From a virus (Duplodnaviria; Caudoviricetes), in IMG/VR virus record IMGVR_UViG_3300037462_000290, positions 1-43,878 of that record: a DNA stretch of 43,878 nt. One strand, 5' to 3'. This document shows positions 1,711-34,163 of the stretch, piece after piece. The position numbers and the translations under genes are program-made. The notes below the pieces were generated by a model that worked only from the letters and a program-made list of their open reading frames with translations, was not told the DNA's origin and ran no database searches. Numbering within the stretch: position 1 is the first letter of the stretch; every line of letters starts with the position of its first letter.

Positions 1711-2246
1711 GGCTCGCACCCTCGCCCGGTGAGGCCCGGGTCTGCGGGGTCAGTGAAGTCCTGCCATGGCACCCAGCCGCGCTGCGGGCAGTGGAAGCCC
1801 CAGGCGCGGACGGTGGGGCCGGTGGCGAAGAGGGTGAAGCAGGTGACGGTCTGATGCTGAGGGATCTGCGACACGTCGGCGCCATCGCGCACGGTGCCGG
1901 GTCGCGTCACCCAGTGCTTGTGCAGCTCGATCCGGTGCGCGCGGCGCGGGCCGCTGATGGCGAGGCTGCCGGCGGGGCGCCAGCGGCGGTGGTGGATGCC
2001 GCCGGCGGCGATGGTGTGTTCGTAGTAGCCGCCGGCCAGCACCAGGCTGCACCACGCCCACGGGTGATCGTGCAAGGCGCGGTCGTCGTCGTCGCGCAGG
2101 AAGTGGTGCAGGTACAGGTTGAAGATGCGGTTGCGCGGCAGCACGTGCCAGCGGCGCAGGTAGGGCGCATTGGCGCCGCCGATGATGACGTCGGGCGGGC
2201 GGCGGGTGATGCGGCGGATGAGGGCTTCGGCGAGGCGGCGCATCAC
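1707..2246 (-). CDS. Conserved phage protein, cupin-like (LHDHPW motif)
   Basis: YLRRW...NLYLHHFLRDDDDRALHDHPW..S.VL.GGYYE..AHRIEL..TLFATGP..AWGF pattern of a His-rich phage cupin-like family. Confidence 0.7.
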   Translation of the reverse strand: MMRRLAEALIRRITRRPPDVIIGGANAPYLRRWHVLPRNRIFNLYLHHFLRDDDDRALHDHPWAWCSLVLAGGYYEHTIAAGGIHHRRWRPAGSLAISGPRRAHRIELHKHWVTRPGTVRDGADVSQIPQHQTVTCFTLFATGPTVRAWGFHCPQRGWVPWQDFTDPADPGLTGRGCEP

Positions 2247-3106
2247 GGTTGCACCTCCGGGCGCGGCTCGCACCTCCACCCACGCCTGATGTCGCTTGGC
2301 TCGTAATCCAGCCAGAAAACTGAGCCGTCCTGCCACTCTGCCCGCCACTTTGCAGACTCTGGCGCCCCCTCCCAGCGCTTCAGGTAAGCCGCCCGCTCAG
2401 GGTCAACCGCTGGCGTCGGGCGCGGCTCGCAGCGGACGGAGCCGAGGATTCCTTTCGGCGCAGGCTCTGCCCTGCCTTCGTCGATAATCCAACCGACTAC
2501 TATGTGGTTGTAGGGCTTGCGGTCGAACCATGTCGCCTGACCGTCGTCGTCTTCTGCGACGAAATCCGCCCACTCCGGCGCCCCCTCCCAGCGCTTCAGG
2601 TACGCGGCGCGGTCGAGGTCAACCGCTGCCTGCGGTCTTGGCTCGCAGGCGACGCGGCCGAGGATTGACGTAGGCGCAGGCCTCAAATATGGGTCACCGA
2701 TCCACGTCTTGTGCCCGTCGCCCTCTGTGCATAGCCTCGGCTCTGCTGTCCACCAGTCGGCAAGGCCATTGCTGTCCTCGCTCAAATGCGTCGCCTCAGC
2801 CGGCGCGTTCGCCCAGCGGGCGAGGTAGGCGGCGTCAGGCTGCTGGGGGCCGGTGTAGAGATTGAAGGCGGTGACGGGCATGGGCGGCTGTTGCATGTTC
2901 GCCAACGCGCGCAGAAGCTGATCGGCCATCCACGCCGCTTCCTCACGCGTGTCGAAGTCGACATGCCCGTTGATGCGGAAGCTCTGTGCGCCGATCTTGA
3001 GCGTCAGCGTGTGCGCGTCTGGCGTGCCAGGGCAAACGATGGGGCTGATCAACAGTTCGGGCGTGGGGCGCTGCGCGGTCTGGTCGGTCTTTCCGGGGGT
3101 GCTCAT
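2243..3106 (-). CDS. Hypothetical protein with three internal AAYLxRWxxAP repeats
   Basis: 287-aa ORF with three related units of about 75 aa, ATGA-coupled. Confidence 0.75.
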   Translation of the reverse strand: MSTPGKTDQTAQRPTPELLISPIVCPGTPDAHTLTLKIGAQSFRINGHVDFDTREEAAWMADQLLRALANMQQPPMPVTAFNLYTGPQQPDAAYLARWANAPAEATHLSEDSNGLADWWTAEPRLCTEGDGHKTWIGDPYLRPAPTSILGRVACEPRPQAAVDLDRAAYLKRWEGAPEWADFVAEDDDGQATWFDRKPYNHIVVGWIIDEGRAEPAPKGILGSVRCEPRPTPAVDPERAAYLKRWEGAPESAKWRAEWQDGSVFWLDYEPSDIRRGWRCEPRPEVQP

Positions 3107-12807: not shown

Positions 12808-13402
12808 GGCGGTTCTGCGACGCATGTGGGTGCGCATGGCTGCGATCTACCCGCACCGGTGGGTAACGGGCGTGGGTGAGTCGCCCGAGCGCGAGGACGG
12901 CCGGCTGAAGCCGCAGGGCGATGAGTGGATGCGTGCCATCGCAGGCCTCAGCGATGACCAGATCGCGGCCGGGCTTGAGGCCTGCCGCCTGCACGGCACG
13001 CCCTACGTGCCGACGCCTGCCGAGTTCCGGGGCCGGTGCCTGGGCATCCCCGAGCTGGCGGTGGTGCGCGATGAGATCGACACGCGCACGTACTCGCGCT
13101 TCACGCTGCTGGTCCTGCGTGGTGGTGTCGACATCAACGGCGTGCGTTGGCCTGGCCTGGACTGGTCGCGCTACCGCAGCGAGCCCGCAGCCTCGGCCAT
13201 GCGCCTGCTCGATCAGACCTATCGCCGAGCGCACGACCATGTGATGCGAGGTGGCGAGCTGCCCGAGCTGCCGGTCGCTGCGATCGAGGAAGAGCCGCGG
13301 CAGTTCAAGCCGGCCGATCCGGCAAAGGTCGCCGACCACTTCGCCCAGCTCGAACGCCTGCTCGGCGTCGGCCGGCCCGAGTCGCCGGGGTCGCCCGCGT
13401 GA
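12788..13402 (+). CDS. Replication protein P-like (helicase loader candidate)
   Basis: MWVRMAAIYPHRW...W...IAGLSDDQIAAGLEAC...PTPAEFRGRC, directly after the initiator. Confidence 0.7.
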   Translation: MEAERRRAVLRRMWVRMAAIYPHRWVTGVGESPEREDGRLKPQGDEWMRAIAGLSDDQIAAGLEACRLHGTPYVPTPAEFRGRCLGIPELAVVRDEIDTRTYSRFTLLVLRGGVDINGVRWPGLDWSRYRSEPAASAMRLLDQTYRRAHDHVMRGGELPELPVAAIEEEPRQFKPADPAKVADHFAQLERLLGVGRPESPGSPA

Positions 13403-13441
13403 AGACGAACCTGAACGAATATGTGAAGTCGAACCTGAACG
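13399..13441 (+). repeat. 19-bp direct repeat pair, 24-bp period
   Basis: GTGAAGACGAACCTGAACG 13399-13417 and GTGAAGTCGAACCTGAACG 13423-13441. Confidence 0.75.
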
Positions 13442-13444
13442 GAC

Positions 13445-13487
13445 GGGTCCTCCCCCGGTTTTGGCGATGCGGGTTGCATGGCCGCAA
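13445..13487 (+). other. Candidate cos site (cosQ plus cosN-like dyad)
   Basis: GGGTCCT at 13445-13451 equals lambda cosQ; TGCG-N11-CGCA dyad at 13468-13486; directly upstream of terS. Confidence 0.55.
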
Positions 13488-13540
13488 AAGCCGGCTAGGT
13501 GCAGGGTTCTGCGACCGGTTATGCCGGGGCGGGTGAGGTT

Positions 13541-14113
13541 ATGACCACGGCCATCGACAACGCCAAGACCATGACGGTCACCGAGTACGCGGGCCACCGC
13601 GGTGTCAGCCAGCCGCTGATCAGCCGGTGGAAGTCGCAGGGCCGGCTGGTGTTGGACTCGAGCGGCCGCATCCTGGTGCGCGCCTCTGATCTGGTGCTCG
13701 ACCAGGACATGCACCCGACGAAAGGCGGCCGCGCTGGATCTCGGGCTGCGAGCGAGCCGGCCGCGCCATCGCCTTCGGCTGCCGGCAGTGATGACCGCCC
13801 AGGGCAAGGCGAAGGCGATGAGCTGTCGCTGGCGAACGCGGCACGGCTGGAGAAGGTGCAGAAGGTCCGCCTGCTGCACATGGAAATCGAAGAGAAGGCC
13901 GGCAACCTGGTCAGCCGCTCCGACGTCGAGCGCACCGCCTTCGACCTGGCGCGGCGCGGGCAGGAAGCGCTGATGGGCATCGCCGATCGCCTGTCTCCGC
14001 AGCTGGCCGCCGAGTCGGATCCGCACCGCGTGCACGTGCTGCTGAGCGATGAGCTGCGCCGCGTGTGCGAGTTGATCGCCTCGCTCGAACCCCAGCAGGC
14101 CGTCGCCGCATGA
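13541..14113 (+). CDS. terS: Terminase small subunit (Nu1-like)
   Basis: N-terminal HTH TVTEYAGHRGVSQPLISRWK, coiled coil with GNLV, IADRL; upstream of terL. Confidence 0.85.
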   Translation: MTTAIDNAKTMTVTEYAGHRGVSQPLISRWKSQGRLVLDSSGRILVRASDLVLDQDMHPTKGGRAGSRAASEPAAPSPSAAGSDDRPGQGEGDELSLANAARLEKVQKVRLLHMEIEEKAGNLVSRSDVERTAFDLARRGQEALMGIADRLSPQLAAESDPHRVHVLLSDELRRVCELIASLEPQQAVAA

Positions 14114-16083
14114 CCCTCGACGTCATGCTCGCCATGGGCGCCGATCCGCTGCCGATCGCCGACGGCGTCGAGGCGTTCCGCGCCGGTTGGTCGAAGGGCT
14201 GGAGCATCCCGGCTCCGATGACAGTTGCCGAGTGGGCCGACGAATACCGCGTGCTGCCGCGCGCCGGTGGCAACGAGTCCGGCCCCTGGCGGACCAGCCG
14301 CACGCCCTACATGCGCGAGCTGATGGAGTGCCTGAGCGCACGGTCACCGGTGCGAGAAGTCGTGTTCATGAAGTCCTCGCAGGTCGGCGGTACCGAGGCC
14401 CTGCTCAACTGGTGCGGCTACGTCATCCACCACGCGCCGGCGCCGATGATGGTGGTGCAGCCCACGGTGCAGATGGGCGAAGAGTGGAGCAAGCAGCGGC
14501 TGGCGAACATGATCGCCGAGAGCCCCGCGCTGGCCGAGATCCTGCCGCCGTCGAAGGCGCGCGACAGCGGCAACACCACGCTGAGCAAGTCCTTTCCGGC
14601 AGGCCACCTGTTCATCGCAGGCGCCAACAGCTCGAGCACGCTGCGCTCCAAGCCGGTCAAGTTCCTGGCCATGGATGAGATCGACGAATACCCCGACGAC
14701 CTCAACGACCAGGGCGGCGCGATCGAGCTCGCGGAGCGCCGCACCACCACCTTCCCCGGTCGCAAGATCCTCAAAGTCAGCACGCCCACGGTGAAGGGCG
14801 CCAGCAACATCGAGCGCGCGTTCATGGCCGGCGACCAGCGCCGCTACCACGTGCCGTGCCCGCACTGTGGCGTGCACCAGCGCCTGGTGATCGAACAGCT
14901 CACCGAGGACGGCCAGTACCTGTGCGAGCACTGCGGCACGCTGATCGCCGAGCACCACAAGCCCGCCATGCTCGCGGCCGGCGAGTGGATTCCGGACAAC
15001 CCGGGCGCCGCCATCCGCAGCTACCACATCAACGCGCTCTACTCGCCGATCGGCCTCGGCGACACCTGGGCGGAGATTGCTCAGCAGCGCACGCGCGCCC
15101 GCACCGATGCCGACTTCGCCATCACCTTCACCAACACCATCCTCGGCGAGACCTACGAAAGCGAAAGCCAGAAGGTCGACAGCAGCGAGCTGCTGGAACG
15201 CCGCGAAGCCTGGAAGCGCCGCACACTGCCAGCCGGCTGCCTGGTGCTGACCGTCGGCATCGACGTCCAGCACAACCGCTGGTCGGTGCTGGTCTGCGGC
15301 TGGGGCCGCGGCGAGGTGTGCTGGTTTGTCGACTGGGTCGAAGTGCCGGGCGACCCCACTCGCGAGGAAGACTGGGACGCGCTCGAGGATGTCGTTTTCG
15401 CGCCCATCGCCAACCGCTGCGGCGTGCCGCTGCGGCCCGAGGTGGTCGCCATCGACTCCGGCAACTGGACGCACGAGGTCTACAACTGGGCGCGCAAGAA
15501 CGCCGCGCGTGGCGTCATCGCCATCAAGGGCAGCAAAGACCCGACCAAACCGATCATCGGCCGCCCAACCCTGCAGGACGTCAACTGGCGCGGCCGCATT
15601 CAGCGCCACGGCGTGCAGCTGTGGACGCTGGGCGTCAACACCACGAAGACCACGCTCTTCGCCCGACTGATGGGCGACGCTGGCGCCGATGCCGACAAGC
15701 GCCGCTGCCACATCCCGGACGACATGCCCGAAGAGTTCTTCCGCCAGATCACAAGCGAGCGCTACGACCTCACGCTCAAGCGCTGGGTGGTCCGCGACAA
15801 GTCCGTGCGCAACGAGGCCTTCGACTGCTGGGTCTACGCCTACGCCGCCGCCGTGCACCCGCGTGTGCGCCTGCATGTCCGGCGCGATGCCGACTGGGCC
15901 GCGCTGGAGTCGAAGGTCGAGCCCGCGGTGATGGATCTGTTCACGGCGTCAGGTGACGGCCCGCCGCGCCCGGCCTCCCAGTCCGCGCCGCCACCTGCCG
16001 CCGTGTTCAAGCCGGCGGATGCGCCGAGGTCTCTCGCGCCCGCCACCCCCGTCGCATCCGATGCCTGGAGCCGCCGCCTATGA
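14110..16083 (+). CDS. terL: Terminase large subunit, lambda gpA family
   Basis: VAEWAD, GPWRTSRTPY, KSSQVGGTE, MDEIDEY, VSTPT, CPHC..CEHC, GIDVQ, IDSG, RNEAFDCWVYA. Confidence 0.95.
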   Translation: MTLDVMLAMGADPLPIADGVEAFRAGWSKGWSIPAPMTVAEWADEYRVLPRAGGNESGPWRTSRTPYMRELMECLSARSPVREVVFMKSSQVGGTEALLNWCGYVIHHAPAPMMVVQPTVQMGEEWSKQRLANMIAESPALAEILPPSKARDSGNTTLSKSFPAGHLFIAGANSSSTLRSKPVKFLAMDEIDEYPDDLNDQGGAIELAERRTTTFPGRKILKVSTPTVKGASNIERAFMAGDQRRYHVPCPHCGVHQRLVIEQLTEDGQYLCEHCGTLIAEHHKPAMLAAGEWIPDNPGAAIRSYHINALYSPIGLGDTWAEIAQQRTRARTDADFAITFTNTILGETYESESQKVDSSELLERREAWKRRTLPAGCLVLTVGIDVQHNRWSVLVCGWGRGEVCWFVDWVEVPGDPTREEDWDALEDVVFAPIANRCGVPLRPEVVAIDSGNWTHEVYNWARKNAARGVIAIKGSKDPTKPIIGRPTLQDVNWRGRIQRHGVQLWTLGVNTTKTTLFARLMGDAGADADKRRCHIPDDMPEEFFRQITSERYDLTLKRWVVRDKSVRNEAFDCWVYAYAAAVHPRVRLHVRRDADWAALESKVEPAVMDLFTASGDGPPRPASQSAPPPAAVFKPADAPRSLAPATPVASDAWSRRL

Positions 16084-16421
16084 GCCGCAAAGTCGCCCGC
16101 TGTCGTGCCCGTGTCAGCGAGCTGGTGGATGAGCTTGCCATCGGTGCGGCGCTGCGTCTGCGTACCGACAGCGACGACATCCGGCCGGTGGTCGAAGCCG
16201 TGGTGGCGTACCTGGTCGAGGAATACCCGAGCCAGGACCTGTACATCCCGGCCAGCGCCAGCGAGCCGCAGTACCCGGTGGCCGAGATCCGCGCGGCCCT
16301 GCAGGGCGGAAAGTCGATTCGCGCCATCTGTCGCGAGTTCCGCATGTCGCGCCGCACGCTGTATGCCGTGATCGACGCTGAAGACGGCCGCGCGACGCCG
16401 ACGGAGCAGCGCGCCGCGTAG
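16080..16421 (+). CDS. Mor/C-family transcription activator
   Basis: LVEEYPSQDLYIP (cf. the GG-x-x-YIP motif of Mor) and C-terminal HTH SIRAICREFRMSRRTLYAVI. Confidence 0.75.
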   Translation: MSRKVARCRARVSELVDELAIGAALRLRTDSDDIRPVVEAVVAYLVEEYPSQDLYIPASASEPQYPVAEIRAALQGGKSIRAICREFRMSRRTLYAVIDAEDGRATPTEQRAA

Positions 16422-16431
16422 CTCGCTCGGG

Positions 16432-16462
16432 GTGCGTCCCGTTCCCCCGAGACGGGACGCAC
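16432..16462. promoter_or_regulatory. Perfect 11-bp inverted repeat upstream of head genes
   Basis: GTGCGTCCCGT-N9-ACGGGACGCAC; no U-tract. Confidence 0.55.
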
Positions 16463-16523
16463 TTGGGTACGGAGCATGCGCATCACTCCCCGCCGGTCGC
16501 GGGGTGCGAGAGCCGCAGCCCGC

Positions 16524-16775
16524 ATGTCGAGCACCGCGCAAATCATGCTGCAGACCTACCTGGACGCCGAGGCCAAGATCCTCAAGGGCCAGTCGGTGCG
16601 CATGGGTGAGCGCATGCTGACGCTGGCTGACCTGAGCATGGTTCAGGACGGCCGCCGCGAGTGGGAAGCGAAGGTCAAGGCCGAAGCTGCCGGCGCGCAG
16701 GGCCAATCCTCGCTTTACGCGCTGGCCGACTTCAGCGGCAACGGCCACTCGCACTGCGAGGGCTTCCGCCGATGA
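16524..16775 (+). CDS. Head completion protein, gpW-like
   Basis: YLDAEAKILKGQSVRMGERMLTLADL; between terL and portal. Confidence 0.75.
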   Translation: MSSTAQIMLQTYLDAEAKILKGQSVRMGERMLTLADLSMVQDGRREWEAKVKAEAAGAQGQSSLYALADFSGNGHSHCEGFRR

Positions 16776-19700
16776 GCTGGCTGGCCCGCGCCATCGATCG
16801 CACCATCGAAACCGTGGCTCCGCTGCACGGCTTCAAGCGCGCGCAGGCGCGGCAGGCCATCGCGCTGTCGCACAAGGCTTACGACGCCGCCGACCGCAAC
16901 CGCTTCCGCGACGCCGTGCGCGACTTCGGCAGCGGCAACAACGCAGTGGTCGGCAGCGGCCTGTACGTGCGCAACATGGCGCGCCACCTCGACCGCAATC
17001 TCGACATCGTCAGCGGCGCGCTGAACACCCTGGCGCAGAACATCATCGGCGCGACCGGTGTGGGCGTGGAGCCGCAGCCGCGTAACCGCAATGGCGACGT
17101 GCTGGAAGACCTCGCCTTTCAGCTCAGCATGCTGCACACGGACTTCGCCAAGCGGCCGGAAGTCACCTGGCAGCACGATATCGGCAGCATGGATCGCCTG
17201 CTGTGCCGCACCTGGCTCCGCGACGGAGAGGTGCTGGCGCAAGAGCTGATCGGCCCGGTGCCGCTTCTCGACCACGGCACCCGCGTGCCGTACAGCCTCG
17301 AGATGATCGAGCCGGACCTGCTGCCGTGGGATCTCACCGACCCGGGCCGAGGGATCACGCAAGGGGTCCAGCGCAACGCCTGGGGGCGACCTGTCGCCTA
17401 CCACCTGTACAAGCAACACCCCGGCGACACCCTGGCCCTGGTCGGTGAGACCAAGTCGGTGCCGGCTGAGCGCGTGATGCACCTGCGCCTGGTCGACCGC
17501 ATCGGGCAGGTGCGCGGCATCAGCCTGTTGGCGTCCGTGCTCACGCGGCTCGACGACCTCAAGGACTACGAAGAGAGCGAGCGCATCGCGGCCAAGATTG
17601 CCGCGTGCTTCGCGGCCTTCATCATCAAGGGCGATCCGACGATGCTGCCGGAGGGTGCGCCTGATCGCGACCGCACCGCACGCCTCGCGCCCGGCATGGT
17701 GTTCGACAGCCTGCGCCCCGGCGAGTCCGTCGGCACGGTCGACACCAACCGCCCGAACCCGAACCTCGAAGGCTGGCGCAACGGCCAGCTGCGCGCCGCG
17801 GCCTCGGGCATGCGCATCAGCTTCAGCGCGCTGGCCAAGAACTACAACGGCACCTACAGCGCCCAGCGGCAAGAGCTGGTGGAGCAGTACGGCGCCTACG
17901 GCGTGCTCGGCTACGAGTTCATCAGCGCGATCGCGCGCCGCCGCTATGAGCGCTTCGCCGCCGTCGCCCTGGCCACGCCTGGCCTGCTGCGCGTGCCCGC
18001 CGACTTCGACCCCGCCAGCATCGGCGACGCCATGTACGCGCTGCCGCAGATGCCGTGGATCAACCCGCTGCACGAGGCCGAGGCCATGGCCGTGCTGGAA
18101 GAGCACACCTACATGTCCGGGCCCGAAATCATCCGCCGCCGTGGCGCCAACCCGCGCGACGTGCTCGATCAGCAATCCGCGTGGATCGCCCGCAAGCGCC
18201 AGTGGGGAATCCCCGACGCGAACGCCGGCGGCTCCGCGCCGCCCCCGGAGACCAACATGACCCCGCCCAACGCCTCCGCGCGCCACCGCACCAGCCATCT
18301 CGCGGCCGAAGCATCGGCCAGTACCGCCGAAGCCAAGCGCGGCGTGCTGCGAGCCACCGCGCTCGCCGCCGGCGCCGAAGTGCTGATCTACGGCCCCATC
18401 GGCGCCAGCTTCTGGGATGAAGGCGTCACCGTCCAGGCGGTCGCCGCGCAGCTCAAAAGCGCTCCGGCAGGCGATGTGCGCGTGCGCATCAACAGCGACG
18501 GCGGCTTCGTCAGCGAAGGCGTTGCCATCCACAACATCCTGCGTGAGTCCGGCCGCCGCATCGTGGTCGAGATCGAAGGCGTCGCTGCCAGCATCGCCAG
18601 CCTGATCGCCATGGCTGGTGATGAAGTCCGGATCTATCCGAACGCCTCGATGATGATCCACACGCCCAAGGCCGGGCAGTTCGGCTCGCCCGAGGAAATG
18701 GACGATGCCGCTGCTTACTTGCGCGTGCAGCGCGAGGCCATGGCGCAGAGCTACGCGCGCAAGACCGGCCGGCCTGCCGCCGAGTTCATCGACCTGATGG
18801 CCGACGGCCGCGACCACTGGTACACGGCCGCCCAGGCGATCGAGGCCAAGCTCGCCGACACGCTCATCGATGGCAGCCCCGAAGCGCTCGACGCCAGCGT
18901 CGCCGCGGCTGCGCTCATCGGCTACGTCAACGCGATCAGCAAGGCGCCGGAAGCACCGCGTGCCCAGCTGCACGCGCACATCAATTCGGCCTGCTCCCTG
19001 GCCGCTTTCGCCTCGCTCAGCGAGGACTACCAGCGCTCCGTTCTGGAGCACATCGAGGACCCGACCATGCGTACGCAGTTGGTGAATGCAATGGCGGCTG
19101 CCGCAGGCGGCCAGCCCACTCCCGCCCCGACCCCTGCGCCGACTCCGGCGCCTGCAGCTGCTGCACCGGCCCCTGCCGCCGTGGCGGCCGCCCCGCAGCC
19201 TCCCGTCGCTGCCGATGCCACCGCCGCGGCCAATGCCGCCATCGCGGCCATCCAGCAGCGCAACAACAACATCCGCGGCGTGTTCGCCGGCTTCCGCGAG
19301 ATGCAGGGCGTCGCCCAGCTCGAAGCCGAAGTGCTCGCAGATCCGACCGTGAGCCTGGAACAGGCGCAGGCCCGTCTGCTGGCGCGCGTCGGTCAGGGCT
19401 CGCCCGTTCAGGGCACTGCCGGCGGCCGCGTCGAAATGGGCGCGGATGAGCGCGACAAGCTGCGCGCCTCGGCGTCGAATCTGCTGCTGGCGCGCACCAA
19501 CATCATCACCGGCGCCGAAGCCGATGCCGCCCGCCAGGGCAACCCGTTCGGCAGCATGTCGCTGACCGCCATCGCCGAGAGCCTGCTGCAGCGCTCGGGC
19601 GTGAACACCCGCGACCTGACGCGCGAGCAGATCGCCAAGCAGGCGCTGGCGAGCCAGACCACCAGCGACTTCGTCATCGTGCTTGAGAACGCGATGCACA

Positions 19701-20551
19701 AGATGGTGGTGGCGGGCTATCGCGCCTCGCAGTTCACCTGGTCGCGTTTCTGCCGTGTCGGCACGCTGAGCGACTACCGCCCGCACAACCGCTACTACCT
19801 GTCGAGCTTCAGCGACATCAAGGAAGTCAACGAGAAGGGCGAGTACGAAGACGGCGTGCTGGGCGATGCCGTCAAGGAAGTCATCACCGCCAAGCGCAAG
19901 GGCCGCATCCTGCAGGTCACCCCGGAAGTCATCGTCAATGACGACCTCGGCTTCATCCAGCAGGCCGCGAGCGCGCTGGGCCTGGCCGCTGGCCGCACCA
20001 TCGAGAAGGACGTGTACGCCCTGTTCGCGCTGAACAGCGGCAACGGCCCGACCATGTCGGACGGCAAGGCCCTGTTCCACGTCGACCACGGCAACATCGC
20101 CGCTACTGCCGCTGTTCCGACCGTCGCCAGCTTGGATGCGGCGCGTGTGCAACTGGCCCTGCAGAAGGACCCGGCCGGCAACGACTTCCTCGACATCACG
20201 CCAGCGCTGTGGCTGGGCCCGCTGGGCCTCGGCGGAACGGCGCGCACGGTGATCGGCGCCGAGTACGACCCCGACACCAACAACAAGCTGCAGCGCCCGA
20301 ACATCGTGCGGAACATGGTGCGCGACATCATCGACACACCGCGCCTGTCCGGCACTGCTTGGTATCTGCTGGCCGATGCCAACCTCGAGCCGACGTTCGA
20401 AGTCGGCTTCCTCGACGGCGTGCAGACGCCGACCCTCGAGCCGGAAACCAACTTCCGCACCGATGGCGTCGCCTGGAAGGTCTCGCACCGCTACGGCGTG
20501 GCCGCCATCGGCTACCGCGGCATCGTCAAGAACGCCGGCACCGGCGGCTGA
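16772..20551 (+). CDS. Single frame encoding lambda-family portal + ClpP-type head protease + scaffold + major capsid protein (1,259 aa)
   Basis: Portal motifs (AYDAA, ARHLDRN, RDGE, GRPVAYH, GQVRGIS, NYNGTYSAQRQ, PWINP); ClpP motifs (IYGPIG, INSDGG, GVAASIAS, MMIH); AP-rich linker; capsid (TTSDF, IVNDDLG, GFLDG, YGVAAIGYRG). No in-frame stop. Internal RBS+ATG at 18257 and 19067. Confidence 0.9.
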   Translation: MSWLARAIDRTIETVAPLHGFKRAQARQAIALSHKAYDAADRNRFRDAVRDFGSGNNAVVGSGLYVRNMARHLDRNLDIVSGALNTLAQNIIGATGVGVEPQPRNRNGDVLEDLAFQLSMLHTDFAKRPEVTWQHDIGSMDRLLCRTWLRDGEVLAQELIGPVPLLDHGTRVPYSLEMIEPDLLPWDLTDPGRGITQGVQRNAWGRPVAYHLYKQHPGDTLALVGETKSVPAERVMHLRLVDRIGQVRGISLLASVLTRLDDLKDYEESERIAAKIAACFAAFIIKGDPTMLPEGAPDRDRTARLAPGMVFDSLRPGESVGTVDTNRPNPNLEGWRNGQLRAAASGMRISFSALAKNYNGTYSAQRQELVEQYGAYGVLGYEFISAIARRRYERFAAVALATPGLLRVPADFDPASIGDAMYALPQMPWINPLHEAEAMAVLEEHTYMSGPEIIRRRGANPRDVLDQQSAWIARKRQWGIPDANAGGSAPPPETNMTPPNASARHRTSHLAAEASASTAEAKRGVLRATALAAGAEVLIYGPIGASFWDEGVTVQAVAAQLKSAPAGDVRVRINSDGGFVSEGVAIHNILRESGRRIVVEIEGVAASIASLIAMAGDEVRIYPNASMMIHTPKAGQFGSPEEMDDAAAYLRVQREAMAQSYARKTGRPAAEFIDLMADGRDHWYTAAQAIEAKLADTLIDGSPEALDASVAAAALIGYVNAISKAPEAPRAQLHAHINSACSLAAFASLSEDYQRSVLEHIEDPTMRTQLVNAMAAAAGGQPTPAPTPAPTPAPAAAAPAPAAVAAAPQPPVAADATAAANAAIAAIQQRNNNIRGVFAGFREMQGVAQLEAEVLADPTVSLEQAQARLLARVGQGSPVQGTAGGRVEMGADERDKLRASASNLLLARTNIITGAEADAARQGNPFGSMSLTAIAESLLQRSGVNTRDLTREQIAKQALASQTTSDFVIVLENAMHKMVVAGYRASQFTWSRFCRVGTLSDYRPHNRYYLSSFSDIKEVNEKGEYEDGVLGDAVKEVITAKRKGRILQVTPEVIVNDDLGFIQQAASALGLAAGRTIEKDVYALFALNSGNGPTMSDGKALFHVDHGNIAATAAVPTVASLDAARVQLALQKDPAGNDFLDITPALWLGPLGLGGTARTVIGAEYDPDTNNKLQRPNIVRNMVRDIIDTPRLSGTAWYLLADANLEPTFEVGFLDGVQTPTLEPETNFRTDGVAWKVSHRYGVAAIGYRGIVKNAGTGG

Positions 20552-20583
20552 TCCCGGCCTGACCTGACCACCCCATAGCCAAC

Positions 20584-20606
20584 GCCCGGCCGAAACCCGG
20601 CCGGGC
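20584..20606 (+). other. GC hairpin after the capsid gene
   Basis: GCCCGGCCG-AAACC-CGGCCGGGC. Confidence 0.5.
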
Positions 20607-20627
20607 ACCCCCAAGAGGACAAGTGTC

Positions 20628-21008
20628 ATGGCAAAGAACTATGTGGCGCCCGGGGACACCATGCCCTGGACCAACACCACCGGCGCGACGGTGACGTCTG
20701 GCCAGCTGCTCGCCATCGGCCACATCGCGGCCGTTGCGCTGACCACCATCACCAACGGCGCGACCGGAACGGTCGGCATCGAAGGCATCTACGACGTGCC
20801 CAAGGTTGCAGCGGCAACTTTCACTGCCGGCGAAAAGCTGATCCTGGACGTGTCCGCCAACGGCGGCCTCGGCGCCTTCGACGACAGCGCGGCCCCGCCG
20901 GCCAGCGGTGACCTGACGGGTGCAGCCATCGCGGTCAACCCGGGTCTCAACACTGAGACCACCTGCCGCGTGAAGCTCACTCCCGGCAACGCGACGAAGA
21001 CCGCGTAA
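20628..21008 (+). CDS. DUF2190-like capsid cement/decoration protein
   Basis: MAKNYVAPG...VTSG...GIYDVPK...CRVKL directly after a protease-capsid fusion. Confidence 0.8.
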   Translation: MAKNYVAPGDTMPWTNTTGATVTSGQLLAIGHIAAVALTTITNGATGTVGIEGIYDVPKVAAATFTAGEKLILDVSANGGLGAFDDSAAPPASGDLTGAAIAVNPGLNTETTCRVKLTPGNATKTA

Positions 21009-21019
21009 ACCCCCGAACC

Positions 21020-21045
21020 GCATCGCCCGGTTCGCCGGGCGGTGC
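21020..21045 (+). terminator. UUCG-tetraloop hairpin after head genes
   Basis: GCATCGCCCGG-TTCG-CCGGGCGGTGC; lacks a U-tract, so may be an mRNA stabiliser. Confidence 0.45.
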
Positions 21046-21074
21046 GTCCGCCCTTGCCCTGAGTCTGCCCGCCC

Positions 21075-21461
21075 ATGACTGCACTGCAGTGGATCTCCGC
21101 CATCGGTTCCGTCGCCACGTTGCTGGTCATCGTGTTCGGTGCCTGCTGGTGGGTGGTGCGGCATTCGATGAGCGTGCAGCGGTTTGCGCTGGAGAGCATC
21201 AGCGCGCTGCAGGCCCGCATCGCCGCGCTCGAGCTGCAGGCCATCAACCGCGATGGGCTGGACAGCGCGCTCGAAAAGGCGCTGTCGAAGGTGATGCAGC
21301 AGATCGAGCGGCGGCTGGACGGCATGGAAGACGGCCTCAAGGCTGCGACCCGCGACCTGCACCAGGTGCGTCTTGATGTCGCGATCTTGAAGGACCGCGA
21401 AGGCGGCACCGATTACAGCGAGCGCAACCGCGCGCTGATGGAGGCCTTGCGCAATGGCTGA
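21075..21461 (+). CDS. Membrane-anchored coiled-coil protein (holin/antiholin-like position)
   Basis: N-terminal TM then coiled coil. Confidence 0.65.
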   Translation: MTALQWISAIGSVATLLVIVFGACWWVVRHSMSVQRFALESISALQARIAALELQAINRDGLDSALEKALSKVMQQIERRLDGMEDGLKAATRDLHQVRLDVAILKDREGGTDYSERNRALMEALRNG

Positions 21462-21780
21462 CTTGGGCGCGCCACCCCCGAGCGACACGCTGGAGCGCAT
21501 CAGCGCCATCACCCGTGCCCTGGGCGTGGGCGGCAGCAATGCCAGCGTGCAGGTGCACCTCAACGCCGGGGGCCTGGGCGTGATCGTGGCGGCTGGCTGC
21601 TGCGCGCTGATGTTCGTGCTGTCGCTGTTCCTGCTGCTGCTGGTTTTCGAGTCGCGCATGCACCTGCGCGAGCACGGCCATCAGCTCAACGCGATCTACC
21701 GCGTCGCCCCCAGTGTCGAGCGCGAGGTGCGCGCCCGGCTTGAAGAAGACGCCCGCCTGCGCGCGCAGGCATCGGAGTAA
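21454..21780 (+). CDS. Single-TM membrane protein
   Basis: VIVAAGCCALMFVLSLFLLLLVF helix. Confidence 0.6.
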   Translation: MADLGAPPPSDTLERISAITRALGVGGSNASVQVHLNAGGLGVIVAAGCCALMFVLSLFLLLLVFESRMHLREHGHQLNAIYRVAPSVEREVRARLEEDARLRAQASE

Positions 21781-21786
21781 GCGGCT

Positions 21787-22224
21787 ATGTCCACCCCGAT
21801 CATCCTCGACCCGGATCCCGAAGAGACCGAACTGGTCAGCCGCAGCGGCTGGTCGGCCTACCCGAACTTCACGCGCGCCGAGTTCGCCTGCAAGCACACC
21901 GGCGCCTGCCACATGCGCCGCGACTTCATGGCCACGCTGCAGCGCATCCGCGCCGACTTCGGGCCGATGCGCATCACCAGCGGCTACCGCCACCCCACGC
22001 ACCCGGTCGAGGCCCGCAAGGGCCACACCACCGGGGAGCACACGCAGGGCGCGGCGTGCGACGTGGCGGTGAGCGGCGCCGACGCGCTGCGCCTGATCCA
22101 GATCGCCACGCGCCACGGCATTACCCGCATCGGCGTGGCGCAGAAAGGACCGCAGAACACGCGCTTCATCCACCTCGGCCTGGGCGGGCGCGGCCTCGCC
22201 TCGCCGGCGATCTGGAGCTACTGA
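21787..22224 (+). CDS. Endolysin, peptidase M15 family
   Basis: NFTRAEFACK, ITSGYR, H-x6-D (HTQGAACD), FIHLG zinc-peptidase motifs. Confidence 0.88.
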   Translation: MSTPIILDPDPEETELVSRSGWSAYPNFTRAEFACKHTGACHMRRDFMATLQRIRADFGPMRITSGYRHPTHPVEARKGHTTGEHTQGAACDVAVSGADALRLIQIATRHGITRIGVAQKGPQNTRFIHLGLGGRGLASPAIWSY

Positions 22225-22225
22225 C

Positions 22226-22603
22226 ATGCAGCCCGTGACCGGCTACATCCGCACCGGCGAGCGTATCCCCAACACCGACCGCCGCTTTGGCGCCGCGTTG
22301 GAGTACGTGGTTGCCCACCTGCTGCAGCCTGGGCAGGACCCGCAGGCGCTGCTGTTCACCGTCGAGCAGCTGCGCGACGCGGTCGACCGGGCCAAGACCA
22401 ACCCCGAAGACTGCCCGCCGTTCGAGCCCGAGCAGGTGCGCATCGATCGCGCGGTGGCGATCGCGCGGAAGGATGAGCGGGCGTTGGTCACTGCGGCGCT
22501 CAAGGCAGAGCGTGCGCTTGAGAAGCGCCGCGCGAGCTGGATCGGATGGGCAATCGGGACCATGTCTGCGCTGGTTGGTGTGGGACTCGGGGTGCTGCTG
22601 TGA
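22226..22603 (+). CDS. Hypothetical protein with C-terminal TM anchor
   Basis: 125 aa ending WIGWAIGTMSALVGVGLGVLL. Confidence 0.6.
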   Translation: MQPVTGYIRTGERIPNTDRRFGAALEYVVAHLLQPGQDPQALLFTVEQLRDAVDRAKTNPEDCPPFEPEQVRIDRAVAIARKDERALVTAALKAERALEKRRASWIGWAIGTMSALVGVGLGVLL

Positions 22604-22965
22604 TCCGCGCCGCCTGGGATCTGCTGCTGCACATCGCCGGCACGGCCCCCGTGTGGGTCGGCCCGATGGTGCTGGCGTGGCTGATCTCCGTTGGCGCCAC
22701 GCAGGCCATCAAGCCGTGGCTGCCCGAGAGCCTCAACGACCGCAGCCGCCACCGCGCCACGCAGGGCATCGCCCTGGGCTTCGGGCTCGCCACTTCCTAC
22801 GCCCTGTGGCCGGTCGAGCTGGACTGGCGCACCGGTGCTGCCGTCGGTGGCGCCGTGGGCCTGTGGGGCCCGGTCAGCTACGCCCTGTTCCGTCGCATTG
22901 CCGAACACCGCTGGCCCTGGCTGCGCGAGCGCCTGAGCGGCGACCGCCCCAACCTCGAGGACTGA
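22600..22965 (+). CDS. Holin-like multi-TM protein
   Basis: GTG start overlapping the previous stop; about three hydrophobic segments and a charged C-terminus. Confidence 0.6.
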   Translation: MIRAAWDLLLHIAGTAPVWVGPMVLAWLISVGATQAIKPWLPESLNDRSRHRATQGIALGFGLATSYALWPVELDWRTGAAVGGAVGLWGPVSYALFRRIAEHRWPWLRERLSGDRPNLED

Positions 22966-22969
22966 CCCT

Positions 22970-23716
22970 ATGCGCACCCTGATCACCCTGCTGCTGCTCT
23001 CCGCGCTGCTGCTGCTCAGCGGCTGCGCCACCACCGGCGAGGCTGCGTTCTACGCACGGCAGGAAGCCGCCGAGCAGGCCCGCGCCGTGCGCATGGCCGC
23101 ACTGGCCGACACCAGTGCCTGCAACGGCGACGCGACCTGCGTGGTCGCCGCCAAGGGCTTCGCCGCGATGGCCGAACTCGGCGGTGGCAGCGCCCAGCCG
23201 CAGCAGTACGTGCCGCAGCCCAGCACCGCTGCCCGCGTGGGCCTTGCGCTCATCGGCCAGCTCAGCCCGCTGGCATCTGCCGCCGTCGCCTGGCGCAGCA
23301 GCGACAACAGCGTACGCACGGCCGAAGCGCAGTTCGGGTTTCTCGGCGGCGTGGTCGAAAGCGTGAGCAACGCAAGTGCCCGCAGCAACGAAGCCGCGTT
23401 CGCGGTGCTGCCGCAGCTTGCGCCGCGTATCGACGTCAACGGTCACTACGTCACGGGCACCCAGACGATCGTCGGCGGCAACTACGGTGACACCGCCGGC
23501 AACGACATGTGGGGCGACCAGAACCGCGTCGGCGCCGAGATCACCACGGGTGCGATCAACACCGGCGTGCAGATCCGCAACCGCGGCAACCTCGGCGACG
23601 GCAACCGCCAGAACAGCCCAGACGACAACAGCACCACCTGCGAGGGCCCGGGGTGCCAGGGCGTCAACCGCCCGATCACCAACCCGCTGCCCGATCCGGA
23701 AGAGGACGAAGGCTGA
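22970..23716 (+). CDS. Lipoprotein of unknown function
   Basis: MRTLITLLLLSALLLLSG-C lipobox; Gly/Asn-rich C-terminal half; two Cys pairs. Confidence 0.75.
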   Translation: MRTLITLLLLSALLLLSGCATTGEAAFYARQEAAEQARAVRMAALADTSACNGDATCVVAAKGFAAMAELGGGSAQPQQYVPQPSTAARVGLALIGQLSPLASAAVAWRSSDNSVRTAEAQFGFLGGVVESVSNASARSNEAAFAVLPQLAPRIDVNGHYVTGTQTIVGGNYGDTAGNDMWGDQNRVGAEITTGAINTGVQIRNRGNLGDGNRQNSPDDNSTTCEGPGCQGVNRPITNPLPDPEEDEG

Positions 23717-24120
23717 TGTTCGGGCTCGGCGTCACCGCCAAGGTGCTCGGCATCGCCGTCGCCCTGCAGCTCGCCACCCTCGCCGGCTGGTGGCTGCATG
23801 TCAGCACCGTGCGCGCGGACAACACGCAGACCGCGACCGACCTGGGTGCGTGCCAGTCGGCGCGCGACACGGCGGTCGCCGAGAACGCCGAATGGGAAAC
23901 CGGCGCGCTCGAAGCCCAGCGCGGCCTCGCCCAGTGCCAGGCGCAGTGGGCTGAGGCCAAGGCCGACGCCGAGTTCCACGCCGCTGCCGCCGCCGAGCAC
24001 CGCCGCAATGCCGTCCGCTGGGCCGAGGCCTTTGCCGGCCGCTACGCGGGCAAGACCGCCCAATGCGCCGCCGCGCTGCAGGCGCTGGATCCGGCCTGCC
24101 CTGAGTTGGAGGGGTACTGA
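23716..24120 (+). CDS. Rz-like inner-membrane spanin
   Basis: N-terminal TM, long Ala-rich coiled coil, C-terminal cysteines. Confidence 0.65.
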   Translation: MFGLGVTAKVLGIAVALQLATLAGWWLHVSTVRADNTQTATDLGACQSARDTAVAENAEWETGALEAQRGLAQCQAQWAEAKADAEFHAAAAAEHRRNAVRWAEAFAGRYAGKTAQCAAALQALDPACPELEGY

Positions 24121-24346
24121 CATGGTCCAAGAACGCGACCCGCTGCCAGCCGCCCCGCCTGTAGTTGAGGACTGGGTCCGTAGCTTCGTAGCGCCACCTC
24201 CGCTATCCGACAGGGAGATCGCGGCCGCGCGTGCCCGCGCCGAACTCCTCAAGCGCGAGCCGTGGCGAGATCCCACTTCCGAGCACTACGACCCGCTGAG
24301 GGTGGCCCGTGCCGATCGCCCCGACCATTTTCTCGGCGCCAGCAAA

Positions 24347-24610
24347 ATGGTCGCCGCCGTCGTAGTGCTGGCCCTCACCGCCTGCACGCCCGACCCGGTC
24401 TACATCACCCGCCCGGTCTACATCGACCGCGTGCAGCAGGTGGTGCAGCCGATCCCGGCCGAGCTGCTGCAGCCGCACGCCATCGCCGAGGGCCTGCCCA
24501 GCCAGTGCCCCAGCATCGCCGCGCAGCGCCGCGCTGAGCTCGAAGCCTGCAACGCCGACAAAGCCGCCATCCGCGCCATCGCTGGCGCGAAGGAGCAGGG
24601 CGATGAGTAA
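24347..24610 (+). CDS. Rz1-like outer-membrane spanin lipoprotein (frame open from ATG 24122)
   Basis: VVVLALTA-C lipobox; IPAELLQP and ELEACNADKAAIR are typical of o-spanins. Confidence 0.7.
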   Translation: MVAAVVVLALTACTPDPVYITRPVYIDRVQQVVQPIPAELLQPHAIAEGLPSQCPSIAAQRRAELEACNADKAAIRAIAGAKEQGDE

Positions 24611-30569: not shown

Positions 30570-33500
30570 ATGACCGACATCAAGCTGCTGCGCCCCCAGC
30601 GACTCACCGACAACCCGGACGGCGGCGGCCTGGCCACCTCGGTCGAGATCGTCGACGGCCAGATCAACAACCTGTTCGACGACGTCAACCGCATCGACCG
30701 CGTCAACGGCGATGTCAGCCTGCGCAAGCTGTTTGCGGTGGCTGACACCAACGACGCCAGCACCTTCGGCGGCCTGCACCTGACCGTGCAGGCGCCGCCG
30801 CTGGATCCGAACGTCAGCGCCTTCCTGTTCCGGACGCCCGGCTGGGCCGATGAGCGCGCCGTGGCGCAGAACGTGGTGGAGCGCTACCTCGACCCCAGCG
30901 TGGTCACGCGCATGCTGCCCTACGACCGCCAGCTGGCCGGCCAGCGCACGGTGCTGGTGTTCCAGCGGCCTGAGTTGGCCCTGCCGGAGATCGGCGAGGC
31001 CTTCGTGCTGTCGAACGAGTCGGGCTCGCTCACCGAGTTCATCCGCGTGACCGACATCAGCCACCGGGTGGAGACCTTCACCGATGAGCAGGGCGAGTTC
31101 GACGCCCGGATCATCACGCTGACCATCTCGCAGCCGCTGCAGAACGAATGGCCGGGCTCGGAGCCCAACCGCTTCTTCCGCTTTGCGCAGACGACAAGCG
31201 GCGTACGCACGGGGTCCTCGCTGCGCGAAACCATCGTCTCAGATGCCGCGCGCTACTCGGGCACGGTGCCGCTGGCCGTGGACGCCGAGACCGGTGCGCT
31301 CACCCTGCGCGTGGCCAGTGTCTACGGCCAGCTGATCCCGGCTGCTGTCTCCGAAAGCCCGGTGCTGAATGCGCCGGCTGGTGGCACGCGCAGCCTGATC
31401 GCTGCCGCGGAGGAAGAGATCACCTCCGGTCCGAACGGCACCTACAGCACCAGCAGCACGCCGGTGCTGTGGTATCTGTCAGGCCCGGTGGTGCCCGGCA
31501 CGCTGCGCCTGACCAACGCTTCGGGCTTCGAGGTGGTGGACGACGGCGCGGGCCGGATCGGCACGCAGAGCACCGTCGACTACGAGCGCGGAGTCATCAC
31601 CACGCTCAGCCTGCCATCTGCGCTGGGTGCGCTGACGGCTCGCTACATCCCGGCGGCGGCCGTGGCCGAAAGCGCGCAGACGTTGAACCAAGCGATCACG
31701 CTGGGCACGCGCGGCAGCGTCTACGTGGCCAACCTGACGCCGGTGCCCGCGCCTGCCAGCCTGTCGGTGAGCTTTCGCGCCCTGGGGCGCTGGTACACGC
31801 TCAGCGACGACGGCTCGGGCGCGCTGCGGGCAGGCGGTGGGGCGCAGATTGGCGTGGGCACCGTCGACACCCTGACCGGCGACGTGAGCGTCACGCTGGG
31901 CGCCCTGCCGGACGTCGGCAGCAGCCTGATCTACAGCTGGGGGCAGAGCAGCACCTACGAGATCCGCACGCAGTCGGTGGGCACGCAGGTGCCCGAGGTA
32001 CAGATCCAGCTCGAAGCCGGCGTCAAGCCCAGCACGGTGAGCATCGAGTGGGAGGCCGACGGCGAGCCCAAGATGGCGACCGACAACGGGTTGGGCGTGC
32101 TCACCGGCGACGCGACCGGCACGGTGCAATACAGCACCGGCCTGGTGCTGCTGCGGCCGACGCTGCTGCCCGACAGCACGGCGACCTTCGAGGTCGACTA
32201 CGAGGCGTCGAGTGTCGTAACCGAAAACTTCACGCCCAGCAAGTCCGGCGCGACCATCACGATCACTGCCGCGGGGCCGATCCGCGAGCGCAGCGTGCTG
32301 ATCACCTACAGCCAGACCCGCGACCAGGGCCCGCTGCAGGTCAGCACCACGCAGCAGCTCACCGACAATGGCAGCGGCCAGCTGGTGGATGCCGGCGGCA
32401 ACATCAAGGCCGGCAGCAGCGTCAACTACACGACCGGCGAGATCACCTTCAACCCGGACTTCACGGTCAACACGCCCACGCTGAGCTACAGCGACTTCGA
32501 GCAAGGCCTGCCGGCGCGCACGGCGGACCCCAGCACCGGCTACTTCGCGGCGCAGGCGCAGTTCGGCTTGTGGCCCACCGGCTGCAGCAACGCCTCGCAG
32601 AGCATCGGCTTCGCGAGCGGCAGCGCGGTGGTGCTGCAATACAAGCCGGCCGCCGCCAGCGACGGCGCGCGCACGGCCAGCGTGCCGGCACCGCCGGTGC
32701 AGATCCGGCTGAACCGCGGCACCAGCAACACCGTGGTGCCCAGCAGCGTGGTGTTCACGCTCGGCGGCAGCCGTTACGTCGACCGCGGTGGCCGGCTGGT
32801 TCGCGACCCCAGCCTGACCACGGGCGCCGGCCTTGATGCCGGCAGCATCAGCTACAGCACCGGGCAAGTGCAGATCACCAGCTACGCCGGCGGCGTGGCG
32901 CCCGCGCTCGCTGTGCAGGCCCTGCTTACCGAGGTGGCGCCGCTGCCGCTGAGTGTCGCCACGGGCCGCACCCCTGGCAGCCCGATCCGCCCGGGCAGCT
33001 TCATCCTGCAGGCCAACCGCTACCGCGACGGTGTGCAGATCACCGGTGTCGCCGATCAAAACGGCAACATCAGCACCGCCGACATGCACGGCTACATCGA
33101 CGCCACCACCGGCGTGTGGTCGGTGGCGTTTGGGCGCTGGAAGCTGGCCAGCACGCTCACCGCCGACGAGCTCGCCGCGCCCTGGTACAGCGTAGAGGCC
33201 GTCAACGAGGACGGCTACATCTGGCGGCCCGAAGAGGCGCAGCCCGGCAGCGTGCGCTTCAGCTGCGTGGTGCAGACCAGCCTGCCGCTCGACCCCGCGA
33301 TCATCGGCGTCAACCCGGTGCGCCTGCCGCTGGACGGCCGCGTGCAGATCATCCGCGCCGGCGACACTGGTGTGATCCACGACACGCAGGCGTTTGCGTT
33401 GCCTCACCCGGTGACCGCCGGGCAGACCTACGCGCTGCCGCGCACGGGTCTGGCCAGCGCCGTGATCTACGACGCCAACGGCCTGGGCCTGCCGGCCGAC

Positions 33501-34163
33501 CTGTACAGCGTGGACCGCACCGCTGGCGAGGTGACGATGGCCGACCCGCTCGACCTGACCGGCTACACGCAGCCGCTGACCGTGCTGCACACGGTCGAGG
33601 ATATGTTCCTGATCACCGATGCGCAGATCGACGGCACGGTGTCGATCGCCCAGCCGCTCACGCGCGCCTACGACGCCAGCAATGCATTGGTCAGCTCGGC
33701 GCTGGTGATCGGCGACGTCGCCGCGCGGGTGGCCAACGTGTTCAGCCAGAACACCTGGACCAACGTGTGGAGCGACACTCTGATCGGCAACCCGCCGACC
33801 AGCGGTGCGGCCTACAACACCGTGGCCAACCCGATCGAAGTGGTCAACGCCAACGCGATCACCCAGCGCTGGCGCATCCAGTTCACCAGCAGCACCGGGT
33901 TCAACGTGGTGGGCGAGCAGCTGGGTGTGCTGACCAGCGGCACCACGGCATCCGACCTCAGCGTGACCAACCCCGCCACGGGCGAGCCCTATTTCGTGAT
34001 CCGCGCTGCGGGCTGGGGTACGGGCTGGGCCACCGGCAACCTGCTGCGCTTCAACACCATCGCCGCCGGCGGGCCGGTTTGGGTGGGCCGCACGGTACGG
34101 CCGGGTGCGGCCACGGTGCTCGACGACCGCATCCGCATCCAGGCACGGTACGACCGGGACTGA
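30570..34163 (+). CDS. Large tail/baseplate structural protein (1,197 aa)
   Basis: DIKLL..QRLTDNPDGGG...NNLFDD..RIDR..GDVSLRK; repeated DxGxG...G(T/S)VDYxTG beta modules; GWGTGWATGN.LRFNT C-terminus. Confidence 0.85.
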   Translation: MTDIKLLRPQRLTDNPDGGGLATSVEIVDGQINNLFDDVNRIDRVNGDVSLRKLFAVADTNDASTFGGLHLTVQAPPLDPNVSAFLFRTPGWADERAVAQNVVERYLDPSVVTRMLPYDRQLAGQRTVLVFQRPELALPEIGEAFVLSNESGSLTEFIRVTDISHRVETFTDEQGEFDARIITLTISQPLQNEWPGSEPNRFFRFAQTTSGVRTGSSLRETIVSDAARYSGTVPLAVDAETGALTLRVASVYGQLIPAAVSESPVLNAPAGGTRSLIAAAEEEITSGPNGTYSTSSTPVLWYLSGPVVPGTLRLTNASGFEVVDDGAGRIGTQSTVDYERGVITTLSLPSALGALTARYIPAAAVAESAQTLNQAITLGTRGSVYVANLTPVPAPASLSVSFRALGRWYTLSDDGSGALRAGGGAQIGVGTVDTLTGDVSVTLGALPDVGSSLIYSWGQSSTYEIRTQSVGTQVPEVQIQLEAGVKPSTVSIEWEADGEPKMATDNGLGVLTGDATGTVQYSTGLVLLRPTLLPDSTATFEVDYEASSVVTENFTPSKSGATITITAAGPIRERSVLITYSQTRDQGPLQVSTTQQLTDNGSGQLVDAGGNIKAGSSVNYTTGEITFNPDFTVNTPTLSYSDFEQGLPARTADPSTGYFAAQAQFGLWPTGCSNASQSIGFASGSAVVLQYKPAAASDGARTASVPAPPVQIRLNRGTSNTVVPSSVVFTLGGSRYVDRGGRLVRDPSLTTGAGLDAGSISYSTGQVQITSYAGGVAPALAVQALLTEVAPLPLSVATGRTPGSPIRPGSFILQANRYRDGVQITGVADQNGNISTADMHGYIDATTGVWSVAFGRWKLASTLTADELAAPWYSVEAVNEDGYIWRPEEAQPGSVRFSCVVQTSLPLDPAIIGVNPVRLPLDGRVQIIRAGDTGVIHDTQAFALPHPVTAGQTYALPRTGLASAVIYDANGLGLPADLYSVDRTAGEVTMADPLDLTGYTQPLTVLHTVEDMFLITDAQIDGTVSIAQPLTRAYDASNALVSSALVIGDVAARVANVFSQNTWTNVWSDTLIGNPPTSGAAYNTVANPIEVVNANAITQRWRIQFTSSTGFNVVGEQLGVLTSGTTASDLSVTNPATGEPYFVIRAAGWGTGWATGNLLRFNTIAAGGPVWVGRTVRPGAATVLDDRIRIQARYDRD

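Follow-up and report, generated by a model that had tools for sequence, protein, structure and literature searches.

Can a phage keep its portal, prohead protease, scaffold and major capsid protein in one uninterrupted gene, and if so, how is a usable portal obtained from it? The question is raised by IMG/VR virus record IMGVR_UViG_3300037462_000290 (Duplodnaviria; Caudoviricetes), positions 1–43,878 of which were analyzed (43,878 nucleotides (nt), hereafter the window). A single open reading frame (ORF) at positions 16772–20551 of the + strand comprises 1,259 codons with 0 internal stops, and profile matches place in it, in this order, a lambda-type portal, a ClpP-like protease, a scaffold-like region and a capsid protein. 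An earlier sequence-only reading of the window had claimed that no stop separates the portal from the ClpP–capsid region, and the stop-free translation bears this out. The portal/protease–capsid fusion is real. The gene is composed as follows (aa, amino acids).

16772–20551 (+): whole fused head gene, product 1 (portal–protease–scaffold–capsid, 1,259 aa), from translation and profiles
16772–18211 (+): lambda-family portal domain, residues 1–480 (PF05136; TIGR01539; dN/dS about 0.07–0.17 in 10 pairs, dN and dS being nonsynonymous and synonymous divergence)
18212–18256 (+): former portal tail, a free Pro/Ala linker of 15 codons (8–15 codons in relatives, always in frame)
18374–18886 (+): ClpP-like prohead protease domain, residues 535–705 (NF045542)
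18590, 18659 and 18812 (+): protease residues Ser607, His630 and Asp681, respectively (alignment)
19067–19561 (+): Ala/Pro-rich helical scaffold-like region, approximate limits, inside the NF045540 match; its role is suggested by what is described of MD8 gp5 (PMC8508860)
19562–20551 (+): major capsid domain, its beginning approximate, with the sole stop (PF25209, residues 955–1254; phrog_133, phrog_4523)

According to the Pfam analysis of the 1,259-aa protein, Phage_portal_2 occupies residues 49–375, CLP_protease residues 562–700 and Phage_capsid_4 residues 955–1254. The lambda-family portal model TIGR01539 gave 296.5 bits (cut-off 172.7) and was covered from position 4 to 453 of 457, that is, over the full portal domain; in addition, the portal profile matches the solved 12-chain portal 8gtd almost to its end. 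Residues 535–1256 match NF045540, the ClpP-protease/capsid fusion family (551.1 bits, cut-off 475), and the protease domain matches NF045542 (152 bits, cut-off 120). The fused gene is the sole match of the window to PF05136 (lambda-type portal), and a single PF05136 match is likewise found in the records of 4/4 relatives. Portal, protease and capsid are the only families matched on the protein by Pfam, PHROG and NCBIfam profiles, with no effector or MuF domain. As a whole, the ORF fits neither the lambda-portal nor the NF045540 family as defined. Lambda-family portals are encoded by stand-alone genes of ~500 codons with their own stop, which the window portal lacks. NF045540 proteins start at the protease and have a length of ~650–770 aa, a description that suits only the predicted 764-aa product of an internal start; 495 more residues precede it in the ORF.

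The sequence-only reading had cautioned that a sequencing error or a recent indel could have created the fusion, or that close relatives might all have a separate portal, leaving this copy defective. Neither concern was borne out. Contigs from other studies pass the junction without a gap: contig X4 (17804–18333) differs from the window by 14 changes and contig X5 (16600–18402) by 132 changes, with 0 gaps over the junction in both. Contig X1 is identical over the junction but may be the source of the window, and contig X2 covers the junction in one piece, 12 of its indels not being among those listed. All of this junction evidence consists of assembled contigs, including those from RNA-labelled runs, which are probably DNA and silent on expression. 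On a 305-portal tree, the window falls in a highly supported clade (clade A, support 1.00; portals 79–100% identical), all intact members of which (11/11) are fused in the same junction frame; independent phages thus keep the fusion.

Searches in protein and DNA databases gave the same picture. Comparison of residues 1–520 with long proteins revealed fused portal–protease–capsid proteins at 99, 95, 95, 85, 86, 85 and 76% identity. Among the best 120 of 3,307 portal-length matches, there is no intact stand-alone portal above 67% identity; one match exceeds this value (97%), a broken copy from whose portal ~140 nt have been deleted. Similarly, no stand-alone protease–capsid protein above 50% identity was found among the best 120 of 600 protease-region matches. 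DNA scans blind to the fusion detected six contigs with a portal at >=88% identity, five of them intact and fused and the sixth being this broken copy, with the junction still in frame. In locus L082 (P0050, P0173), ~140 nt are gone between two short direct repeats in the portal, by deletion or as an assembly artefact. A BLASTN search of the junction against GenBank phages returned short protease matches only.

Purifying selection acts on all domains of the fused gene (portal dN 0.016–0.10, dS 0.23–0.82), and the portal's C-terminus is intact in the fused proteins. The linker lengths in six clade A sequences (45, 45, 45, 45, 42 and 24 nt) all keep the frame. When the window linker is read in the fused frame, the last base is G or C in 15/15 codons, compared with 10/15 in either other frame; for the clade, the linker codons again track the fused frame, with G or C at the third codon position in 55/67 cases as against 40 and 42 in the other frames.

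False fusions of this kind do occur. As a control, 12 long matches of E. coli type were considered, which, unlike clade A, have shifting breakpoints and for the most part a garbled portal end, as errors or decay would be expected to produce; these matches were left out of the 305-portal tree. Locus L017, initially scored as fused, proved to be a false call on a frameshifted contig and was also dropped from the tree. For the window, a misassembly or a defective prophage that recently acquired an indel is nevertheless extremely improbable, given the identical junction frame in clade A and in contigs from other studies, the intact portal C-terminus, the selection on every domain and the excised circular form of the record described below.

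The fusion being real, the question arises of how separate head proteins could be produced from it. The sequence-only reading had pointed to two in-frame starts preceded by Shine–Dalgarno (SD) motifs and to co-terminal products of 1,259, 764 and 494 aa. Both starts are present and conserved, and recomputation gave the same lengths.

16758–16762 (+): SD-like GAGGG, 9 nt ahead of the portal ATG (an upstream GAGGG is found in 6/6 clade A sequences)
18247–18259 (+): internal start 1, GGAG (18247–18250), 6 nt, ATG at 18257; predicted product 2, protease–scaffold–capsid of 764 aa
19055–19069 (+): internal start 2, GAGGA (19055–19059), 7 nt, ATG at 19067; predicted product 3, scaffold–capsid of 494 aa

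In the ranking of the 73 in-frame ATG/GTG codons by simple anti-SD pairing, 18257 was first, 16772 second and 19067 joint fourth. At start 1, an SD-like motif with ATG or GTG is found in 6/6 clade A DNA sequences, including an ATG/GTG swap typical of start codons, and the position is Met or Val in 11/11 clade proteins. In the other fused clades for which DNA is available, the SD-like motif and the start codon are also kept, the motif being weak in L310. As for start 2, SD and ATG are present in 7/7 clade rows and are a family-wide feature: they were found 430–530 codons from the gene end in 82/88 protease–capsid genes, compared with 64/1,340 other ATGs (survey of fused and split genes, pairing <= -5 kcal/mol, best ATG in the zone taken, near-duplicates present among the 88). 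The residues encoded at start 2 differ between family genes though SD and ATG are kept. At the sequence level, such conservation of an SD and an in-frame start at the border of the protease and scaffold parts is the arrangement of lambda C/Nu3-type genes. Three C-coterminal products are thus probably made from the fused gene. The conservation of start 2 suggests that the "single" capsid genes of Gifsy-2 type make most of their capsid protein without the protease.

Start 1 is the ancestral start of the downstream protease–capsid gene. Relatives at <=67% identity are mostly split, often with an ATGA overlap; in 54/106 distinct split portals, the gene ends in (A/G)TGA and so overlaps the start that follows. 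In the ancestor, the portal stop would have overlapped the next start in the same way (A-TGA), and the gain of one base (or the loss of two) in the free tail would have removed the stop; a one-base gain there would leave the downstream ribosome-binding site untouched.

The remnant of such an overlap could also serve to release a free portal by recoding. The sequence-only reading had noted that the +1 frame ends at TGA 18258–18260, which is correct, and had proposed a programmed +1 slip at CCC-CCG, which did not stand up to comparison. Overlap of the +1 TGA with the internal start is seen in 4/6 clade sequences, and this stop is lost in the other two (L083 and L086), where the +1 frame runs 64–68 codons; the +2 frame runs 57–89 codons in all six. 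CCC-CCG occurs in two of the six (the window and L084), no +1 motif is common to them, and no X-XXY-YYZ heptamer for a -1 shift was found in them; thus, these sequences lack what is typical of programmed frameshifts, namely a slippery site and a shifted-frame stop that are both conserved. Of the predicted RNA pairs, 1/29 covaries, with an unfavourable covariation term. Recoding, whether by a programmed +1/-1 frameshift or by ribosome drop-off at the internal start, is therefore a very improbable source of free portal. A terminator or an internal sigma-70 promoter was also considered and rejected, since none was conserved or found; in particular, no + strand terminator was found in 13000–22000.

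Since no product but the longest contains the portal and recoding lacks support, the 12 portal subunits would be made as 135-kDa chains. Residues Ser607, His630 and Asp681, which we take to be the catalytic triad by their likeness to ClpP motifs, are invariant in 17/17 aligned fused proteins. Release of the portal by the embedded protease is plausible because the triad is intact, and it appears to be the most likely route because, in addition, the capsid must be cut free anyway and ~55 low-complexity residues (481–534) intervene between portal and protease.

Related systems indicate how a long chain could be accommodated. Green fluorescent protein (GFP) joined to the C-terminus of the T4 portal sits inside the prohead, and T4 rings were obtained with four to six GFP fusions, which hindered expansion (PMC10893049). 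In lambda, portal, protease and scaffold form an initiator complex, and the portal itself is trimmed (PMC3224144); in HK97, ten scaffold towers touch and dock on the portal (PMC10275583).

Taken together, these data lead to the following model, which we regard as reasonably probable: three nested products, a portal freed by the embedded protease, and a fusion that is tolerated rather than required. A few 1,259-aa chains would be the sole source of portal, with some 764-aa protein and a bulk of 494-aa scaffold–capsid protein. The portal C-terminus would face the prohead interior, where the protease and scaffold also lie, so that the long chain could assemble. The ClpP-like protease, needed anyway to free the capsid domain, would also cut the flexible stretch 481–534 and release a near-normal portal ahead of DNA packaging. 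With 12 chains per head the fusion would be cheap, and it is probably tolerated rather than needed. The model implies a new substrate for ClpP-like prohead proteases, namely the portal tail.

Several observations weigh against this model. The use of the internal starts and any cleavage are what we infer from the sequence. In a T=7 head, 12 portals stand to ~415 capsid subunits, a ratio of 1:35. The three starts score alike (-6.4, -6.6 and -5.9 kcal/mol), so that, contrary to what the sequence-only reading had supposed, SD strength does not account for stoichiometry, and the required ratio is not explained by these scores. In L083, the SD is weaker (AGGAC) and lies outside the seven best of that gene. 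The linker is barely conserved (dN 0.27–0.99), and no cleavage site could be named in it, no conserved motif being found in the clade sequences. Its freedom from stops is a weak sign of selection, as 0.7–2.8% of single changes create a stop. Finally, the fused layout was not found among the best 50 of 1,865 GenBank phage matches (two unannotated). With no cultured phage of this layout among them, its viability rests on metagenomic sequence.

A linker without a conserved cleavage motif would also suit a portal that is never released, so that in the mature head it remains attached to the protease domain or to 12 capsid subunits. Stand-alone portals of the family bear C-terminal extensions of 130–190 residues, and fusions of portals with cargo domains are described (PMC5512222), but the capsid domain has to be separated from protease and scaffold either way, the triad is intact, and the T4 rings held four to six GFP fusions and were hindered in expansion. 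We consider an uncut portal quite improbable.

The distribution of the fusion bears on whether it is merely tolerated or has been selected. The 148 locus rows that could be classed comprise 129 split and 19 fused ones (duplicates and the false call L017 included); 107/255 rows were left unclassed for want of a scorable protease adjoining the portal. Fused genes are scattered on the portal tree: clade A with the window, clade B (P0009/10), clade C (P0011 group), clade D (P0012 group), the mixed clade E, which has fused and split members, and P0267. The last is a single 1,168-aa protein in which a lambda portal is continued by a protease/capsid fusion of HK97 type (NF045541), a fusion of like design with a protease of another family; it is known from this one sequence. 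A 48-row maximum-likelihood tree requires six changes of state, at least five of them forced by well supported branches; since the tree is unrooted, gains and losses of the fusion are not told apart in these counts. A single origin of all fusions was rejected (approximately unbiased test, p-AU 1e-6), as was a single origin of clades A, B and C alone (p-AU 0.0017, the group having been picked after viewing the tree). In the split loci L021 and L223 of clade E, the tail codons fit the protease frame (C at the third codon position in 18/27 versus 2/27), which points to a probable reversion from fused to split in these loci and also in L017.

These data could be read in favor of selection for the fusion, in which the portal ring would bear 12 protease–scaffold–capsid chains that seed the shell, with the protease placed at the portal vertex and the cut made after assembly. 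The forced changes of state and the rejection of a single origin agree with it, as do the ten HK97 scaffold towers that touch the portal (PMC10275583). Clade A has stayed fused while dS reached values as high as 0.8, though in 4/6 sequences the loss of 1 nt from the linker of 24–45 nt would restore a free portal. With tree lengths being similar, the stem branch of clade A is 0.72 for the protease as against 0.31 for the portal; the clade A protease is 43% identical to those of near split relatives, which are themselves 61% alike, with changes just after the catalytic His. This long stem may, however, reflect a domain swap. Other points also speak against selection: fusions are rare (in 400 Lysobacteraceae-family genomes, 1/22 portal matches is fused, and that one is the search centre, L083; one of the 21 split matches is the unpublished genome G390, without which the count is 1/21), three fused clades are shallow (depth 0.03–0.06), one lineage has seemingly reverted, and internal start 1 is kept everywhere. 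In addition, no fused layout was found among the best 30 GenBank phage matches for P0014. Recurrent gains together with a probable reversion are just as compatible with a tolerated fusion, and selection for the tether is rather unlikely. The fullest form of this proposal is just as tentative: the longest product would be a covalent assembly nucleus that ensures one portal per head, the fast-changed protease would free the portal as a maturation checkpoint, and the layout would have been reached several times independently. One portal per head is usually explained by non-covalent portal–scaffold contacts; a natural portal–protease–scaffold–capsid chain that is closely related to split forms, one base sufficing to switch between the two states, makes the effect of having or lacking the tether directly testable in otherwise similar head modules.

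Exchange inside the fused gene is indicated by its capsid part. L001 and L084 are 100% identical to the window in the portal and 99% in the protease, compared with 65% in the capsid (19560–20551), and P0003 has the capsid type of the window; by sequence comparison, recombination evidently occurs within the gene. As for the stand-alone portals, nine of 630–672 aa (P0104, P0105, P0123, P0128, P0146, P0154, P0182, P0200 and P0220) carry coiled-coil or Pro/Val-rich repeat tails, several with a common end motif.

The virus record (43.9 kb, 69% GC) is rated 100% complete and carries terS, terL, a gpW-like adaptor, the fused gene, a decoration protein, an endolysin, tail genes, an integrase and two methylases. 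The fused gene is flanked as follows.

16524–16775 (+): gpW-like head–tail adaptor (phrog_118, E 5e-21); its TGA overlaps the portal ATG (ATGA)
20628–21008 (+): head decoration/cement protein (PF09956; phrog_122)

Between the tail genes and the integrase, positions 38666–38727 correspond to the 3' 62 nt of tRNA-Ser(CGA), a stretch found without mismatch in five genome records, of which four are named Aquimonas and one Lysobacterales. This site is likely attP, and the host is probably Aquimonas (Lysobacterales). A 38-nt exact repeat is present at the window ends (1–50 and 43830–43878) within one reading frame, the copies diverging just beyond it; this frame is presumably HNH-like, judging by its motif. 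Since tail and integrase genes are joined across the tRNA site and the ends share the repeat in one frame, the record appears to represent a temperate phage in its excised, circular state. Rfam and ARAGORN gave no matches on the window. Other genes include lysis genes between the head and tail genes (21075–24610, with an M15 endolysin at 21787–22224 and a weak spanin match), adenine and cytosine DNA methyltransferases at 569–1885 (-) and 40348–42468 (-), a gene at 1707–2348 (-) matching phrog_4786 "cysteine dioxygenase", and a 1,197-aa tail-region protein (30570–34163) whose only match is phrog_6128 (unknown function).

No description of a single portal–protease–capsid gene was found in the literature covered, which included few subscription papers. 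Databases call these 1,250-aa proteins "lambda family phage portal protein", which hides the capsid gene. Parts of the arrangement are known. Protease, scaffold and capsid share one frame in gp5 of the Pseudomonas phage MD8 (PMC8508860) and in Salmonella phage Gifsy-2's tripartite capsid gene (via PMC12315714), and protease–scaffold–capsid genes are also described in PAJU2 (via PMC8306868) and in Arthrobacter phages, which have a portal–MuF fusion as well (PMC5513430). The gene studied here differs from the Gifsy-2/MD8 type (NF045540) by a complete lambda-type portal added in frame at the front. Natural C-terminal additions to portals are represented by the MuF portals of Arthrobacter cluster AK and by polyvalent-protein portals (PMC5513430, PMC5512222), but the appended part there is MuF or an effector and not protease–scaffold–capsid.

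The 494-aa product has the same plan as the delta domain–capsid fusion of HK97, in which the scaffold touches the portal (PMC10275583), whereas the portal and protease of HK97 are separate genes and its protease belongs to another family. Lambda B/C/Nu3 offers the same gene order, in which a protease gene containing an in-frame internal scaffold start comes after the portal (PMC3224144). In lambda, however, B is closed by a stop of its own, E forms a separate gene, and the nested C/Nu3-type product is scaffold alone; here, there are two nested starts, and the frame runs on into the capsid domain, which the nested products include. From these comparisons, the fused gene is predicted to work like a head module of the Gifsy-2 type in which the starts are nested in the manner of lambda.

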